Below, in pieces: positions 1 through 7,037 of a DNA stretch of 64,000 bases. Source of the DNA: Haliotis cracherodii (Eukaryota). Where the stretch lies: contig NW_027266270.1 in assembly GCF_022045235.1 (NCBI RefSeq), forward strand, positions 9,424,001 to 9,488,000. Direction: 5' to 3'. The translations under genes were made by a program, and so were the position numbers. Positions within the stretch are counted from its first letter, which is position 1; each line of letters starts with the position of its first letter. The notes under the pieces are model-generated. The model worked only from the letters and a program-made list of their open reading frames with translations. It was not told where the DNA came from and ran no database searches.

Positions 1-22
1 ACTGTATCTAATCGCTTTCCCA
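1..22 (+). repeat. 3' end of split direct repeat A1 (truncated by window)
   Basis: ACTGTATCTAATCGCTTTCCCA is identical to 5489-5510, and the two diverge immediately after. Confidence 0.85.
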
Positions 23-40
23 TTTTATGTTTCCTTTGTA

Positions 41-180
41 CCCAGTCGCGAACGTTTCGCCGATTACGCTTTGAATACCATCTATTCCAACACTCGCCGT
101 ATCGCATTTACACAATCGCGACCGTTTCGCCGATTACGCTTTGAATACCATCTATTTCAGCACTCGCCGTATCGCATTTA
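41..180 (+). repeat. 70-bp tandem duplication in the element 5' leader
   Basis: 41-110 and 111-180 are near-identical (CGTTTCGCCGATTACGCTTTGAATACCATCTATT...CACTCGCCGTATCGCATTTA). A degenerate third piece lies near 217-236. Confidence 0.9.
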
Positions 181-258
181 TTCCGCTCTACTCCCGAACT
201 TCACCCTCGGGACAATTTACGCTTGTGGAATACCAACTCACCACCCCGACTTTTCGTG

Positions 259-1404
259 ATGCCTCCCAAGAGAAGAGCAACCGTCAACCACAAGCTTGTG
301 AGGGGAGCCAAGCAGGCCAGGACAACCAGAAGACAAACCCCGGGAGTACACATTGTACAGGAGACAACAGCTGATGGTGAGTCTGCCAATTACGGAAATA
401 TCGAAGGTGGCAACAGAATTAACGTACAATCGGCGCAGCTTGTAAATGCCGCGCAGGTTGCCAACTCGGCTACCCAGGTAAACGAGCAACTGGGAAAAAT
501 ACTCCAGTTGCTGGAACATTCAGCGCCCGGCCCGGTTAGCGCAAACCAACAGGTAAGGCTTGGTTTTAGTTCTCCCGCCATTTCGCCCAACATAGGGAGA
601 ATCCCCGATGCGCACAACGAGGCCGACGGTGACGCGGCCCCAGCCAATCACATCGCTGGATACGGGGATTCCCTTTCCTTCCGTGCGGACGGAATAGACG
701 CGCACGTCAAACAACAGGTGAGGGAAAAAATCTGGCGTGGCGAGTATGTTGACCTCGGCACAATACTACCAAACACCGAGGGAAGTCACGAGGACGGTAC
801 GATTACCATGGCGTATGACTCCTCAGGTAAGGTAATTTTTAAACCAATAAAACAGCAAGCAAAGCGCCTGTCCCTGGCAAGCTGGACTTCAGCTTTCCAC
901 ATTTTCATGTGTACTTACGTTAGTAGGCACTCCGAGGTCCGCACAACCCAGGGGTTGCTGTCCTACATGGAAACCATAAGAACGGCGGCACTTCGATTCG
1001 GGGGGGATGCCTGGTCAACCTACGACCAACAATTCCGACACAGAATGTCAAGGGACCCCTCACGACGCTGGGACAACATCGACGGGGAGTTGTGGCTGAA
1101 GTACATGGTAACACAGCCGGTACTACAACCAGAATCAGGCGGACGGGGCGCAATGACACGCGTACAGGGGGACATCGCCAGTCAGGTATGCTGGGATTTC
1201 AATAAATTTGGCTGTAGCAGGGTCAACTGTAAGTACACTCACAAATGCGGTAAGTGTTGCAAACATTCCCATAGCTCTAGGACCTGCTTTCGAGGGAATG
1301 GGGTCCAACCGACCCCATACAAGCCCAATCAGCCCTTTCCTAACAGAAAACCAGCCGGCAAGGCAGGTAAATTCAATGGCCCCTTCCCCCGTGGATCTCA
1401 ATGA
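259..1404 (+). CDS. gag: Gag-like ORF1 with C-terminal CCCH + CCHC zinc fingers
   Basis: First ATG at 259 (MPPKRR). Motifs KIWRGEYVDL, W..YDQQFR, and CWDFNKFGCSRVNCKYTH-KCGKCCKHSHSSRTC typical of Ngaro/DIRS ORF1. Confidence 0.88.
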   Translation: MPPKRRATVNHKLVRGAKQARTTRRQTPGVHIVQETTADGESANYGNIEGGNRINVQSAQLVNAAQVANSATQVNEQLGKILQLLEHSAPGPVSANQQVRLGFSSPAISPNIGRIPDAHNEADGDAAPANHIAGYGDSLSFRADGIDAHVKQQVREKIWRGEYVDLGTILPNTEGSHEDGTITMAYDSSGKVIFKPIKQQAKRLSLASWTSAFHIFMCTYVSRHSEVRTTQGLLSYMETIRTAALRFGGDAWSTYDQQFRHRMSRDPSRRWDNIDGELWLKYMVTQPVLQPESGGRGAMTRVQGDIASQVCWDFNKFGCSRVNCKYTHKCGKCCKHSHSSRTCFRGNGVQPTPYKPNQPFPNRKPAGKAGKFNGPFPRGSQ

Positions 1405-3010
1405 AATGGCACCCTGGTTACGCCAATATGCTAGGGTCAATTACAGAGATGCAAATTATTTATGGGTAGGTTTTAGCTTTGGCTTTAAGCTCGAGTTCCA
1501 GGGAAGCCGCACGGGTCGCCTGGCACGAAACTTGCGATCAGCCACACACCAAGATACGGCAGGCTACGTGAAACAAAAACTACAAAAGGAAGTCGACCTT
1601 GGCAGGATGGCGGGCCCCTTCAAGGACACCCCCCTAGACAACCTCCAAGTATCCCCAATAGGCCTGGTGCCCAAGAAGCAGCCAGGATATGGTCAGCACC
1701 TGGGTAAGCATGCGGAGGAATTCCGTCTAATTCACCATCTATCCTATCCCAGGGGTAAATCTATAAATGACTCCATAGACACAGAGGCCTGCTCCGTTGT
1801 GTACGCCAGATTTGATGAAGCTACCCAGATGGTGCAACAACTGGGAAAGGGAGCATTACTAGCAAAATTCGACATTCAGTCGGCCTTTAGAATTATACCA
1901 GTCCACCCATCCGATTTCGAGCTGCTAGGCATCAGATTCGAAGGTGAGTTCTATTTCGATAAATGCTTACCATTTGGCTGCTCCATATCTTGCGCCATAT
2001 TTGAAACGTTTAGTACCTTCGTGCAATGGTGCATGCAATCGCATCTTCCAACGTGTCCGGTCATGCATTACCTGGATGACTTCCTAACGGGGGGCACAGC
2101 AGGCACCAGCCACTGCTCAGACAACCTCAACGGATGCGTGAATACACTTGAACAGCTTGGGGTTCCTATTGCGCACGACAAGACGGTGGGCCCCACAACC
2201 AAACTGACATTCCTAGGGCTGGAAATCGACACCATTGCAATGCAGATCAGAATCCCAGAGCCCAAGATCAAGGAGGCAACAAGGGAAATCCAAGACATCC
2301 TGTCAACAGGTAACATCAAGGTCACAAAAAGGGCCCTTCAGTCCCTCATAGGCAAGCTTAACTTTATGTGCAGGGCTATACCAATGGCAAGGGCATTCAG
2401 CCGCAGGCTAATCGATCTGCTTAGCAAAGGTAAGCAACCATTTCACCACATTAGGATTACCAGCTGGGTCAAGGAAGACCTACAAATGTGGTTAACATTT
2501 CTTACGAGTTATAACGGCATTTCAGTGTTTCAGGACCAACTATGGGTGGACAGCGATTTCCTCCAGCTGTTTTCAGACGCAGCGGGTGGCGCCGGCTTTG
2601 GGGCCTACATGCAGGGCAAATGGTTTAACGGCGCATGGCCACCCCGGTGGGTGACGGATGGAACTACACGGGACTTGACGCTCCTGGAGCTGTTCCCCAT
2701 CACACTGGCCATCCAAATCTGGGGCAAGCAACTCGCAAACAAAAAGGTCCTCTTTTACTGCGACACCCAAGCCGTCGTAACAATAATCAACAAGCAGTCA
2801 ACCAAGGCCCCCAGAGTGATGAGCCTACTCCGTCGCCTAATCCTGCAGTGTCTCCGATATAATATTATGTTTAAGGCAAAGTATGTATGTTCCACTGCTA
2901 ACACTATTGCCGATGCTCTCTCGAGGTTTCAGCTCAAACGCTTCCGAGAGGCAGCACCAGCCGCGGACCAGAACCCCACACCTATCCCGTGCAACATATG
3001 GCTGATCTGA
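1208..3010 (+). CDS. pol: Reverse transcriptase / RNase H (pol); in-frame ATGs at 1298, 1376, 1406
   Basis: SPIGLVPKK, FRLIHHLS, KFDIQSAFR, LPFG, YLDDF, FLGLEID; RNase H motifs FSDAAG, ELFPI, YCD, NTIADALSR. Overlaps gag in the +1 frame. Confidence 0.95.
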   Translation: MAVAGSTVSTLTNAVSVANIPIALGPAFEGMGSNRPHTSPISPFLTENQPARQVNSMAPSPVDLNEMAPWLRQYARVNYRDANYLWVGFSFGFKLEFQGSRTGRLARNLRSATHQDTAGYVKQKLQKEVDLGRMAGPFKDTPLDNLQVSPIGLVPKKQPGYGQHLGKHAEEFRLIHHLSYPRGKSINDSIDTEACSVVYARFDEATQMVQQLGKGALLAKFDIQSAFRIIPVHPSDFELLGIRFEGEFYFDKCLPFGCSISCAIFETFSTFVQWCMQSHLPTCPVMHYLDDFLTGGTAGTSHCSDNLNGCVNTLEQLGVPIAHDKTVGPTTKLTFLGLEIDTIAMQIRIPEPKIKEATREIQDILSTGNIKVTKRALQSLIGKLNFMCRAIPMARAFSRRLIDLLSKGKQPFHHIRITSWVKEDLQMWLTFLTSYNGISVFQDQLWVDSDFLQLFSDAAGGAGFGAYMQGKWFNGAWPPRWVTDGTTRDLTLLELFPITLAIQIWGKQLANKKVLFYCDTQAVVTIINKQSTKAPRVMSLLRRLILQCLRYNIMFKAKYVCSTANTIADALSRFQLKRFREAAPAADQNPTPIPCNIWLI

Positions 3011-3921
3011 GGCAGGAAGCCGGCAGACTCCTACAACAATCTCTGTCTACTAATACATGGGCCACTTACCAAACAGGCATCAATGCCTTGCACCAGTTCC
3101 GGTCCGCACACCAGCTACAAGAGGTGTGGCCAGTCCCGCTGGATCAGGTCGTAAACTTTATTGCTTATCTGTCAGTCACTCACCACTCCCCTAACACAGT
3201 CAAGACTTACATTGCAGCGCTGTCTTCACACCACAAATTCCACGGGCTCACCGACTGTACAAACCATTTCCTGATAGGCAAGATTGTAACCGCCTTACAC
3301 AAATCAGCGGGCCGACCAGACACCAGAAAACCGATCACTGCAGATCTGCTGCAGGTAGTAACCAACAATCTGCCTCACGTATGCTCATCAGCATATGAAG
3401 CCAGGCTGTTCAAGGCAGTCTACTGCACAGCCTTCTTCGGTTTCTTTAGGGTTAGCGAACTCGTCCAAACTGGACCCTCAAAAACAGGTTGCGCCATCCA
3501 GAATTTAAGCTTCTCGGGCAACCCCCAGCAGCTTTCAATCCATTTACCACACTCAAAGTCTGATCAGTACAGGATGGGGACAACAGTTACAATGTCACCT
3601 ATACCAGGTAATCCGCTATGTCCGGTAGTCGCCATCAAGCACTACCTGGAGGCGCGCCCCTCCGGCCCACAACATGCATTCGTCCACTTTGACCATTCCC
3701 CCGTTACAAGGTACCAATTCCAGGCACTCCTAAAAAAGGCCTTAGCACACAGCAACATAAACACGGCCTGCTATTCTTCGCACTCCTTCCGCATTGGGGC
3801 AGCCACATCAGCAGCCATGAACGGGGTGCCCGAACACCTCATACAACAATACGGCAGGTGGAAATCAGATTGCTACAATGCTTACATACGCCTACCAACA
3901 AATTCAATGTTGCACAATTAA
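2998..3921 (+). CDS. Tyrosine recombinase (integrase)
   Basis: Catalytic set FFRVSEL (R), SKSDQ (K), HSFRIGAAT (HxxR), GRWKS (W), AYIR (Y). ATG at 2998 overlaps the pol end. Confidence 0.95.
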   Translation: MADLRQEAGRLLQQSLSTNTWATYQTGINALHQFRSAHQLQEVWPVPLDQVVNFIAYLSVTHHSPNTVKTYIAALSSHHKFHGLTDCTNHFLIGKIVTALHKSAGRPDTRKPITADLLQVVTNNLPHVCSSAYEARLFKAVYCTAFFGFFRVSELVQTGPSKTGCAIQNLSFSGNPQQLSIHLPHSKSDQYRMGTTVTMSPIPGNPLCPVVAIKHYLEARPSGPQHAFVHFDHSPVTRYQFQALLKKALAHSNINTACYSSHSFRIGAATSAAMNGVPEHLIQQYGRWKSDCYNAYIRLPTNSMLHN

Positions 3922-4513
3922 ATCAAATAGTCTTTCATGGTACTTACTACACTTCTTATTGTTTACAGTTTGGATGGTGGGATCCAGCTACATGGCCAGG
4001 GCACGGCAGTACTTGCTCCTGAAGGGCACCAGCCCGAACCAACCGAGGATGCTATGGCTGGCACGAGGGGGGATGAGGTGGAAGGAGCTGGACACCATTC
4101 TGGATGCACAGGTCAAGGCGACACGGCGCAGCCCCAGAGCCCTCATCATTCACCTGGGCTCCAACGACCTGTGCTCGGTCAAAGGCAGCCAACTCTACCT
4201 TGACATGGTGGCATCAATCCTTCGGATACAACTCCAGCTTCCTGACACCAAGATCATCGTATCCTCAATGCTGCCCAGGCGCTACTGGCACGATGCCAGG
4301 GATCCACGAAAGATCGAGGGGATGCGGAAGAATATCAACCGCCGACTGACCAACCGAATCAAAGAGCTCGGCGGTACAACAGTGCCACATCCCCAGATCC
4401 TGGCATCTGACAAGACATGGTACGCCTGGGAGGGCGTCCACCTCAGTGACAAAGGACTGTGTGTGTTTACGGACAATTTATTGCATGCCCTGGCGCTCGT
4501 TTTGCGCCAGTAA
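3878..4513 (+). CDS. SGNH/GDSL-type hydrolase ORF; domain proper begins about 3968 and is probably reached by splicing
   Basis: Blocks VWMVGSS, RGG, IIHLGSNDL, EGVHLS. An SGNH ORF after YR is known from some Ngaro elements. Confidence 0.85.
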   Translation: MLTYAYQQIQCCTIKSNSLSWYLLHFLLFTVWMVGSSYMARARQYLLLKGTSPNQPRMLWLARGGMRWKELDTILDAQVKATRRSPRALIIHLGSNDLCSVKGSQLYLDMVASILRIQLQLPDTKIIVSSMLPRRYWHDARDPRKIEGMRKNINRRLTNRIKELGGTTVPHPQILASDKTWYAWEGVHLSDKGLCVFTDNLLHALALVLRQ

Positions 4514-4630
4514 GGATATTATCTCCACAGGTTAGTGTTTCCTTTCAGTGCATAAGCAAGCCGGGCAACAATGCTATCTCCGCGTATCGCGTGGCCGTGG
4601 GTGTGGGGTAGCACTCTGGTGCTTTGTGGC

Positions 4631-5279
4631 GGGGTTCTTGTGGGCTACACTGCTAGTAACAAATTAACTTGCTTCCAAATTAATACTCGTGCTTAAGGCT
4701 ACCTGCTTTTCAGCGGGAACCTTTCCGGGGTTACCTGCTTCTCAGTGGGAACCTTGTCTTTCCCGACTTTTCAGCCGGGGAATCGTAGAATAACATACGT
4801 TGGGGCAAACAGTTGCCACGTATATGGGCCCGGCGGCGGAAGTCGTCTTGTCAAGCGGTAGCTGACAGTTGGGTCCGCGGCGGGAGCCGCACAATGGTTT
4901 TGCTAATGGGGCCGGGCAGTGTGATCTGCTTTGGCCGGCTACCTGGGGCCGGGCAGCGGCAGTCTGACTTAGGCCAGCAGCGTGGAGCTGCTTTTGGCAA
5001 CGTGGGAGTTGCCAAGCAATGGTAGCGTTTAAATATGCTACCGTGGGGGCCGGACAGCGGTAGCAGTCTCAGGCCAGCAGCGCTAGCTGCAATCGCCGTC
5101 GGCCACGCGCGTGGCCATGGCAACGGTAGCATTTTTGGTATATACAATTAGCAGCTAAGTAGCCCACTAGTACCTGCACACCCTCGGCCATTTAACCCAA
5201 TCTCATCTTCTGTTTTATTACAGGCACGGGCACCAACGGCTCGGTGGCCCGTGCCTCTCCTTGGCATATCGCAGGATAA
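4631..5279 (+). repeat. Split direct repeat B1 (649 bp)
   Basis: Matches 5808-6456 at offset 1177; only 3 substitutions seen by eye. Confidence 0.95.
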
Positions 5280-5510
5280 TTACATTTAGTACTAACTACT
5301 AAATGACTTTATCGCGCGTATCCAAACCATGGGCTAATTACGTCTGTAACCCAATCACCCCTCGTAACTCAATCACCCCGGGCCACCACTCGGCACCGTG
5401 CCCGGGGAATAATCCCGCGCAAGCATCATCCCGCCCTTTGTTAGTCCGTCATTCGCGAGCAGCCCTTCCCCAAGTACACACGTGTGTCACTGTATCTAAT
5501 CGCTTTCCCA
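5280..5510 (+). repeat. Split direct repeat A2 (about 231 bp), promoter-like
   Basis: Directly follows B1 and its last 22 bp equal window 1-22. Contains CCAATCA (5351), CCCGCCC, TCATTC (Inr-like, about 5449) and the ACACACGTGTGT palindrome (5476-5487). Confidence 0.8.
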
Positions 5511-5634
5511 CCAACCCACCCAGCTTGCCACTCCTTTTTCTTTCCTTTTCAGCCTGACGTGTCCTCTTCACCTGGAATGCTAATCACTTCTTTTCTTCAG
5601 CGTTTATTCTATTACAGGTACCAGCAGAGCGGAT

Positions 5635-5766
5635 TGTATATATGTAAATAAACCTGTACATATGTAAAATAGGTTTTCAGAGCGCTTGTATATATGTACA
5701 TACTTCTAAACGATTCTGATATATGTAATTAAACATGACTTCTTAATAGCTGTATATCTGTACATA
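5635..5766 (+). promoter_or_regulatory. Cluster of six perfect Pumilio response elements (TGTAHATA)
   Basis: Perfect sites at 5635, 5643, 5655, 5687, 5695, 5759; near matches at 5663, 5724, 5751. Confidence 0.7.
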
Positions 5767-5784
5767 TGCAATACCTGTCTCAAC

Positions 5785-5790
5785 AATAAA
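5785..5790 (+). terminator. Candidate polyadenylation signal
   Basis: AATAAA followed about 10-30 nt later by GT-rich GTGTGCGGGGGTTCTTGTGG. Confidence 0.55.
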
Positions 5791-5807
5791 CTATGTCGAG
5801 GTGTGCG

Positions 5808-6456
5808 GGGGTTCTTGTGGGCTACACTGCTAGTAACAAATTAACTTGCTTCCAAATTAATACTCGTGCTTAAGGCTACCTGCTTTTCAGTGGGAACCTT
5901 TCCGGGGTTACCTGCTTCTCAGTGGGAACCTTGTCTTTCCCGACTTTTCAGCCGGGGAATCGTAGAATAACATACGTTGGGGCAAACAGTTGCCACGTAT
6001 ATGGGCCCGGCGGCGGAAGTCGTCTTGTCAAGCGGTAGCTGACAGTTGGGTCCGCGGCGGGAGCCGCACAATGGTTTTGCTAATGGGGCCGGGCAGTGTG
6101 ATCTGCTTTGGCCGGCTACCTGGGGCCGGGCAGCGGCAGTCTGACTTAGGCCAGCAGCGTGGAGCTGATTTTGGCAACGTGGGAGTTGCCAAGCAATGGT
6201 AGCGTTTAAATATGCTACCGTGGGGGCCGGACAGCGGTAGCAGTCTCAGGCCAGCAGCGCTAGCTGCAATCGCCGTCGGCCACGCGCGTGGCCATGGCAA
6301 CGGTAGCATTTTTGGTATATACAATTAGCAGCTAAGTAGCCCACTAGTACCTGCACACCCTCGGCCATTTAACCCAATCTCATCTTCTGTTTTATTACAG
6401 GCACGGGCACCAACGGCTCGGTGGCCCGTGCCTCTCCTTGGCATATCGCGGGATAA
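5808..6456 (+). repeat. Split direct repeat B2, element 3' terminus
   Basis: Copy of B1 ending ...GGATAA; host intron sequence ACACTTATTATTG follows. Confidence 0.95.
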
Positions 6457-6512
6457 ACACTTATTATTGTTCTGACCTTTTTAATGGATTATTGTTTTGT
6501 AGAATATCTTAC

Positions 6513-7037
6513 CTGCTACGTGTAGCCATTATGGCTTTGACTCCATGAACAGGAGCCTTCTCCTTCCCAACGAGAAAGGTGACGTCACACATCTCTGGCA
6601 TGTTTAGGATGAGGGAGAGACTGTCCTGTAAGTCCCCTGTGCTTTTAAGCATCATGACGTCACCCCGACCGGAGGACTGTGAGGGGTGAGAGCTGGATTG
6701 GCTGAAAGATCTTGACTTCGAGGTCGTGCTGACGCCTTCATCAGAGGAGTAGTCGCTTGAGTCATAGCCTGAAGAGGTACCTTCAGCTGGAATAAGAAAA
6801 CAAATCAGTTATGAAATAATATTTCATTTGTTGCAAATGTTAGTAAAGCTGAGTGTTGTTTCATGAACAAAATGTGTCCTTGAAATATACTTTGAAAAAA
6901 CCATCAAGGAATTATTATCCTGATGTGATAAAAGTGAATAATGCAAATGTCTCACCGTCTGCGTCATGACCAGTGTGGTCAATAGTTTCCATGGCCGAAG
7001 AGTCCAGAAGACAAAGTCGGGAATCGTAATGATTCAT
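6513..7037 (-). CDS. BTB/POZ gene copy 1, exons 1-2 only (6956-7037, 6513-6786); intron 2 interrupted by the Ngaro element
   Basis: Same exons as other copies (one synonymous CGT/CGA change); intron 2 runs into B2 at 6456. Confidence 0.8.

Follow-up and report, generated by a model that had tools for sequence, protein, structure and literature searches.

The window analysed here, a 64,000-nucleotide stretch of Haliotis cracherodii DNA, carries at positions 1–6456 one intact retroelement, a Ngaro retrotransposon (order DIRS), whose open reading frames (ORFs) follow one another in the order gag-like, reverse transcriptase/RNase H (RT/RNase H, or pol), tyrosine recombinase (YR), and SGNH hydrolase; all element features given below lie on the forward (+) strand. 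The gag-like ORF (259..1404, 381 aa) matches no Pfam family, the RT/RNase H ORF (1157..3010, with the query started at ATG 1382) contains RVT_1 (E 9e-15), the YR ORF (2998..3921, 307 aa) contains Phage_integrase (E 4e-8) and a SAM-like domain, and the hydrolase exon (3969..4513) contains Lipase_GDSL_2 (E 1.3e-7). The source genome holds five more families, labelled B, D, E, F, and G, with hydrolase identities of 43–55%, and the window element represents family A. The question addressed is how the last ORF is expressed. A sequence-only reading of the window had proposed that the hydrolase is made from a spliced RNA that skips pol and YR, as retroviral env is; the evidence now assembled makes it probable that the conserved product is a gag leader fused to the SGNH hydrolase by splicing, with two donors inside YR, after 3123 and 3147, acting as competing sites that are favoured among genomic copies.

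The splice sites on which that proposal was built are present in family A as described. The donor ATG|GTGAGT (374..382) has its last exon base at 376, 39 codons plus 1 nt from the gag ATG at 259, in phase 1, and the acceptor region (3943..3968) comprises a branch-like CTTAC 26 nt before the hydrolase exon and a pyrimidine tract with a CAG ending at 3968, also in phase 1. The coding part of the proposed exon 1 (259..376) is a 39-aa leader with 9 Lys or Arg residues, basic as claimed, and its coordinate join to the hydrolase exon, which starts in phase 1 and runs for 180 codons from Trp to stop, gives the expected 220-aa protein with Val at the junction. The proposed intron (377..3968, 3,592 nt) would span most of gag, RT/RNase H, and YR. 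By weight-matrix score the donor has 9.8 bits and is sixth in the element, yet no strong donor lies between it and the gag ATG; the acceptor ranks first among the 270 AGs of the element by an ad hoc score. The family A hydrolase frame is open for 50 codons upstream of the Trp, with an ATG 31 codons upstream; these codons had been read as resembling intron sequence, and in families B, D, E, F, and G a stop lies 4–14 codons upstream, so that the extension is not conserved. A second phase-1 donor, CAG|GTAAGG after 826 (824..832), exists as had been noted, but it is rejected as a hydrolase donor: no genomic copy, joint, or gene model connects it to 3969, and families E, F, and G have no counterpart of it among their strong donors. 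It was seen in use once, in a contig of sequencing run X9 that joins 826 to 924, where 97 nt with GT..AG ends are removed within gag, which would shift the frame.

Spliced copies in the genome can reveal splicing because a retroelement writes its own spliced RNAs back into the genome. A set of 138 fetched loci was mapped to the reference of each locus's own family and deletions of at least 40 nt were scored; because odd frame lengths were one criterion in selecting the loci, the deletion counts describe a non-random sample, and each locus search scored part of its candidates (for example, 129 matches from 150 of 188). Eleven copies, nine of family A and two of family B, have an intron removed exactly to the acceptor at 3968, and this acceptor is used in vivo. 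The 84 family A loci contain 99 deletions, 64 of them without filler, of which 10 fit GT..AG and 7 of these end at 3969; the P of 7e-14 obtained for such end points under a uniform null is inflated by the partial selection of loci on odd frame length. An eighth spliced copy (L098) combines the 3123 junction with a small deletion, and the ninth (L169) was found separately. Other GT..AG-compatible deletions, in L099, L123, and L137, show 5–12 nt of microhomology and were taken as chance. The donor after 3123 (3121..3129) was used in seven family A copies (L069, L071, L072, L085, L098, L137, and L169) and the donor after 3147 (3145..3153) in two (L073 and L138). These copies do not form one lineage, because L069 differs little from the young family and L085 is nearer to the unspliced L083 and L086 than to other spliced copies; shared-difference counts indicate at least three separate origins for the 3123 copies, plus the 3147 form.

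The gag donor is used in family B. Both GT..AG deletions among the 19 found in 19 family B loci end at the acceptor; L166 uses the homologue of the 3147 donor, and L089 consists of repeat A1, gag to codon 42, hydrolase, and B1, with 3,685 nt removed exactly between GT and AG, so that its junction is the exact homologue of 376 joined to 3969 (376^3969). This copy is the only one with a gag-leader/hydrolase junction among 40 scored of 61 candidates. The RefSeq protein model P0004 (H. cracherodii, three accessions), which is a gene model only, matches the same family B join at 224 of 224 residues. Spliced copies were not found in families D, E, F, and G (7, 5, 13, and 10 loci, respectively). The proposal that the hydrolase comes from a spliced RNA skipping pol and YR is thus supported by L089, P0004, and the set of 11 copies; as to junctions into 3969, which the sequence-only reading had set as a check, one of the 11 is homologous to the predicted join, and the joins seen in family A start from 3123 or 3147.

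In each of the six families the sites and their phase are conserved, which was the second check. Downstream of the gag ATG, the first donor to reach 9 bits lies in phase 1 within codons 33–50 in every family (codons 39, 42, 36, 36, 33, and 50 in A, B, D, E, F, and G, respectively), with the full GTRAGT in five of them, and the surrounding peptide is not conserved among families. Synonymous recoding of the peptide gave an equally good site in 0.6–12% of trials per family (0.006–0.12), a range that depends on the weight matrix used and on a codon range chosen after looking; for these reasons, and because the families are related, the per-family P values were not multiplied. Of the 61 loci that cover the gag donor, 53 carry it without change. 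On the acceptor side, the homologous hydrolase Trp codon is preceded by a CAG at a distance of exactly 2 nt in 19 of 20 loci, the exception, L045, being a 5'-truncated copy that was rejected as a spliced copy; in family G the CAG is placed one codon earlier, in the same phase, in six of six loci. By the ad hoc score, the acceptor ranks 29th of 285 AGs in B, 5th of 315 in D, 1st of 246 in E, 1st of 300 in F, and 26th of 254 in G.

These comparisons bear directly on the idea that the hydrolase is translated from unspliced RNA, with initiation either at the ATG that lies 31 codons upstream or through reinitiation once YR has terminated, and with the splice sites incidental. A 230-codon open frame in most young copies, a Met near the domain start in A, B, and F, and contigs that pass unspliced over 3968 are all consistent with such translation. 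However, in families D, E, and G the stretch from the last stop to the catalytic Ser lacks an in-frame ATG, the stops upstream of the domain recur in five families, the AG is kept in phase in six of six families even though the spacer before it is non-coding and diverged, and 11 copies are spliced at that very AG. Unspliced translation is largely refuted and is given very little probability.

Similar fusions are encountered among bivalve database proteins. Mussel hydrolase fusions and gag proteins have about 143 residues in common and separate where gag continues Gly-Met-Tyr, which is what a consensus donor would encode; the gag proteins P0020, P0021, P0031, P0033, and P0036 and the fusion P0014 diverge at the same residue. 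P0014 is a contiguous ORF known from Logan only (a 1,197-nt contig), and P0043 is a read-through of the acceptor. Similarly, the first 70 residues of an oyster gag protein, P0216 (Logan; E 1.7e-50 to the gag profile), are common to the fusions P0200, P0202, and P0203, which come from Logan contigs of 933–1,308 nt, and P0134 is an oyster read-through of the acceptor. The gag profile, built from five families, recovers both mussel and oyster gag. A profile search for the hydrolase gave 146 new matches, in which a motif resembling a translated phase-1 acceptor ends 25 of 35 short leaders versus 17 of 55 long ones; at least 8 Lys or Arg within the first 40 residues occur in 16 of the 55 long leaders. 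The named sources among 20 profile matches looked up included clams, oysters, frogs, lizards, and one fish. Proteins P0037–P0042 (1,300–3,100 aa) contain several copies of the hydrolase domain each.

Transcript-like data were taken from four sequencing runs compared with window 1–5795; all of these are contigs, which lose rare forms, and the RNA status of three of the runs is a guess. A joint from 3089 to 3967 in X6 and X9, the single displayed joint that reaches the acceptor, was rejected as fresh 3123^3969 splicing and counted as transcription or DNA of L169, not as RNA evidence, because its flank and filler letters match that old genomic copy. L169 (G000:C13:16926300-16929300) is an old, truncated spliced copy whose flank also occurs in the X6 and X9 contigs from other organisms; it therefore predates their split, and it may lie in a host transcript.

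Several observations weigh against the gag-leader fusion as the product of family A itself. The junction 376^3969 was seen in none of the 84 family A loci mapped, a count made without an exhaustive genome-wide junction scan, and all nine spliced family A copies use 3123 or 3147, with an intact gag donor still present in seven of eight such copies checked; among copies of all families, inner donors outnumber the gag donor 10 to 1. The nine Haliotis rufescens family A models all correspond to joins from 3123 or 3147 and lack a gag leader. The main contigs pass 376 (X2 and X9) and 3968 (X2 and X6) unspliced, and no joint from 376 occurs among the 15 of 57 joints displayed, which is not proof of absence given that contigs drop rare forms and that RNA status was guessed. 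A leaderless start is also possible from a Met that lies one codon after the Trp in A and B and four codons before it in F. In addition, the mussel and oyster donors and their phase 1 are deduced from residues, not DNA, on contigs that may come from RNA or from DNA.

Such counts could mean that the working hydrolase message of family A comes from the YR donors, translated from ATG 3057 or from the Met that follows the Trp, and that the gag donor is ancestral and little used. Besides the uniform use of these donors among the nine copies and their several origins, RefSeq isoform pairs at one locus differ by 24 nt between donors 3123 and 3147, as this explanation would have it. Nevertheless, the ATG at 3057 that opens the 3123 and 3147 joins is absent in B, E, and F and is followed by a stop in D and G, gag and pol still precede the hydrolase in such an RNA, family B uses both kinds of donor (L089 and L166), and the gag donor has remained unchanged in most loci; a message of this kind is regarded as unlikely. 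The gag-leader fusion is instead read as the selected product, because the inner joins are out of frame for YR, their ATG is unconserved, and the gag donor is kept in every family. It is strongly implied that family A also makes 376^3969.

The expression scheme that would follow from the gag-leader fusion gives one element transcript two fates. The unspliced transcript would serve as genome and as message for gag and pol, and host splicing from the first strong gag donor to the acceptor after YR would produce a short message reusing the gag ATG, from which a protein of about 220 aa, with a basic, unstructured gag leader followed by an entire SGNH hydrolase, the junction codon marking the start of its first strand, would be translated. 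Retroelements show a cis preference, in which their own RNA is copied by their own proteins. RNAs spliced from 3123 or 3147 keep the coding for Gag and RT and would have a large copying advantage over the short RNA, which has neither; the over-representation of these forms among genomic copies would thus be due to retention of gag and pol, which makes self-copying possible.

In the predicted enzyme, SGNH blocks I, II, III, and V are present with Ser, Gly, Asn, and His conserved; the position of the block V acid is occupied by Glu in families A and B, by Asp in E and F, and by Arg in G (L052:5016-5540), with the D copy broken. The predicted structure of P0004 has the SGNH fold (mean pLDDT 90) and matches PAF acetylhydrolase best (E 3e-9, TM 0.71); in this model the junction Val starts strand 1 (residues 43–47) and the leader is of low confidence. 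The product would therefore be a single SGNH domain with a basic leader and not a membrane glycoprotein. The best solved relative by sequence is PDB 4c1b (E 6.6e-10), which we take to be the ORF1p esterase of the non-LTR retrotransposon ZfL2-1. By analogy with that esterase, the leader may tether the enzyme to element RNA, to the particle, or to the nucleus, and the enzyme may act on lipids or membranes. It could be argued that splicing only generates by-products, or restrains the element by removing pol and YR, and that the fusion protein has no function. The protein and its activity are predictions, the acid of block V is missing in family G and is Glu, not Asp, in A and B, and the 3123 and 3147 forms destroy YR, all of which could be accommodated by that argument; against it, frame and phase are kept in six families and two bivalve lineages, and the Ser, Gly, Asn, and His blocks are conserved. 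Of the explanations considered, this one is thought the least probable.

Several known systems resemble parts of this arrangement. ZfL2-1 ORF1p is an active esterase that binds negatively charged membranes and has an arginine-rich peptide proposed to bind RNA, and it is likewise a retroelement SGNH domain with a basic peptide, although there the SGNH domain belongs to ORF1 itself, with a coiled coil, whereas here it forms the last ORF and the basic peptide would be spliced from gag (PMC3905857). The role of the arginine-rich peptide may be taken here by the basic gag leader. In murine leukaemia virus, env mRNA and the SD'/P50 RNA join a 5' donor to a 3' acceptor and skip pol, SD' lies in gag and fuses the Gag N-terminus to a 3' frame, as proposed here, and reverse transcription and integration of the spliced RNA have their counterpart in the spliced genomic copies described above; it differs in being a retrovirus with LTRs and an integrase, and splicing there adds integrase or yields Env, not an esterase (PMC10496198). 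The likeness to retroviral env claimed by the sequence-only reading accordingly extends to expression from a spliced RNA that skips pol (L089 and P0004 in family B, and by implication family A) and not to the product, which is an SGNH-fold protein where Env is a membrane glycoprotein. In plant Ty1/Copia elements, conserved alternative splicing also sets retrotransposon protein output through a subgenomic gag RNA, which yields Gag alone, in contrast to a gag leader fused to a 3' accessory gene (PMC5580714). The Xenopus Ngaro elements DIRS-53_XT and DIRS-54_XT share the gag, RT/RNase H, YR, and SGNH ORFs and the A1 ... B1 A2 B2 repeat plan, but the abalone element has a 290-bp spacer between A2 and B2, and the hydrolase ORF that PMC9210276 places in amphibians is here in molluscs. 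The function of the Ngaro hydrolase is described as unproven or unknown (PMC9210276; PMC6681497), the strings 'splic' and 'intron' occur 0 times in PMC9210276, and no description of splicing of Ngaro hydrolases was found in the literature searched, where a single work mentioned both Ngaro and SGNH.

The results address how downstream ORFs are expressed in tyrosine-recombinase retrotransposons and what the Ngaro hydrolase does. They give the probable N-terminus of the hydrolase, with which the protein can be expressed and assayed, and a single site, the 376 donor, whose silent change should abolish the hydrolase product; they also draw a parallel with both retroviral subgenomic RNAs and the basic-peptide-plus-esterase ORF1p of L2 elements. 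Spliced genomic copies offer a means to map element splice sites without RNA data. The results also suggest that many 'uncharacterized' mollusc SGNH gene models, and perhaps frog and lizard ones, are transposon transcripts.

A wider, retrovirus-like splicing programme may exist, in which animal Ngaro elements, those of frogs and lizards as well as of molluscs, use the one gag donor with several acceptors of matching phase; both hydrolase and YR would then be made as gag-leader fusions, with the leader serving as a shared RNA, particle, or nucleus tag; this extension is held tentatively, at somewhat less than even chances. A candidate YR acceptor (2919..2932), in phase 1 of the YR frame and 65 nt before YR codon 1, is present in six of six families with the frame open to YR codon 1 in each. 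The YR start codon is TTG or CTG in families E and F, and one mussel model (P0017) and one oyster model (P0214) join a gag leader to YR-frame sequence. Frog and lizard database models of this hydrolase also carry long leaders. The candidate falls, however, within a conserved pol motif, and no copy in any family among the 138 loci mapped, nor any displayed joint, ends there. A conserved pol acceptor was rejected, as phase-1 AGs are present at no common position among families.

The assignment to Ngaro follows the definition in PMC9210276 (repeat plan, ORF set, and a hydrolase ORF in some members). The split direct repeats A1 ... B1 A2 B2 are present, with A 231 bp at 100% and B about 655 bp at 99% identity, the gag-like, RT/RNase H, and YR ORFs overlap and follow the Ngaro order, and pol contains RT families only in Pfam, with no methyltransferase domain. 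Only the 3' end of repeat A1 (1..22) falls in the window, as the 231-bp repeat starts 208 bases before it (L031 2792-3022, 100% identical to A2); B1 occupies 4626..5279 (99% to B2), A2, delimited by the split-repeat comparison, 5280..5510, and B2, likewise from the repeat comparison, 5801..6456, the 3' end of the element. The same plan was found in copies L032, L033, L040, L042, and L052. The element is young, with 66 of 150 scored hydrolase matches (467 candidates) spanning the domain at 89% identity or more. Its nearest named protein matches are Haliotis proteins, in keeping with an abalone host. A 70-bp tandem duplication lies in the 5' leader (window 39-180), and related short duplications occur in other families. 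Acceptor-like pyrimidine tracts are also found at 5201-5224 (repeat B) and 5530-5620 (the A2-B2 spacer), with no joints there among those displayed.

The remainder of the window (6457-64000) is a tandem array of 14 nearly identical copies of a 4,392–4,394-bp unit, and the element sits inside one of these units. Ngaro insertions are expected to lack a target-site duplication, and none was present when the insertion was compared with an empty unit of the array. The array has a BTB-like exon on the minus strand (6509-6808), which reaches Pfam BTB at E 0.057 only. Elsewhere in the genome, five family G copies lie about 10 kb apart at G000:C67:43036000-43081000, which suggests tandem amplification.

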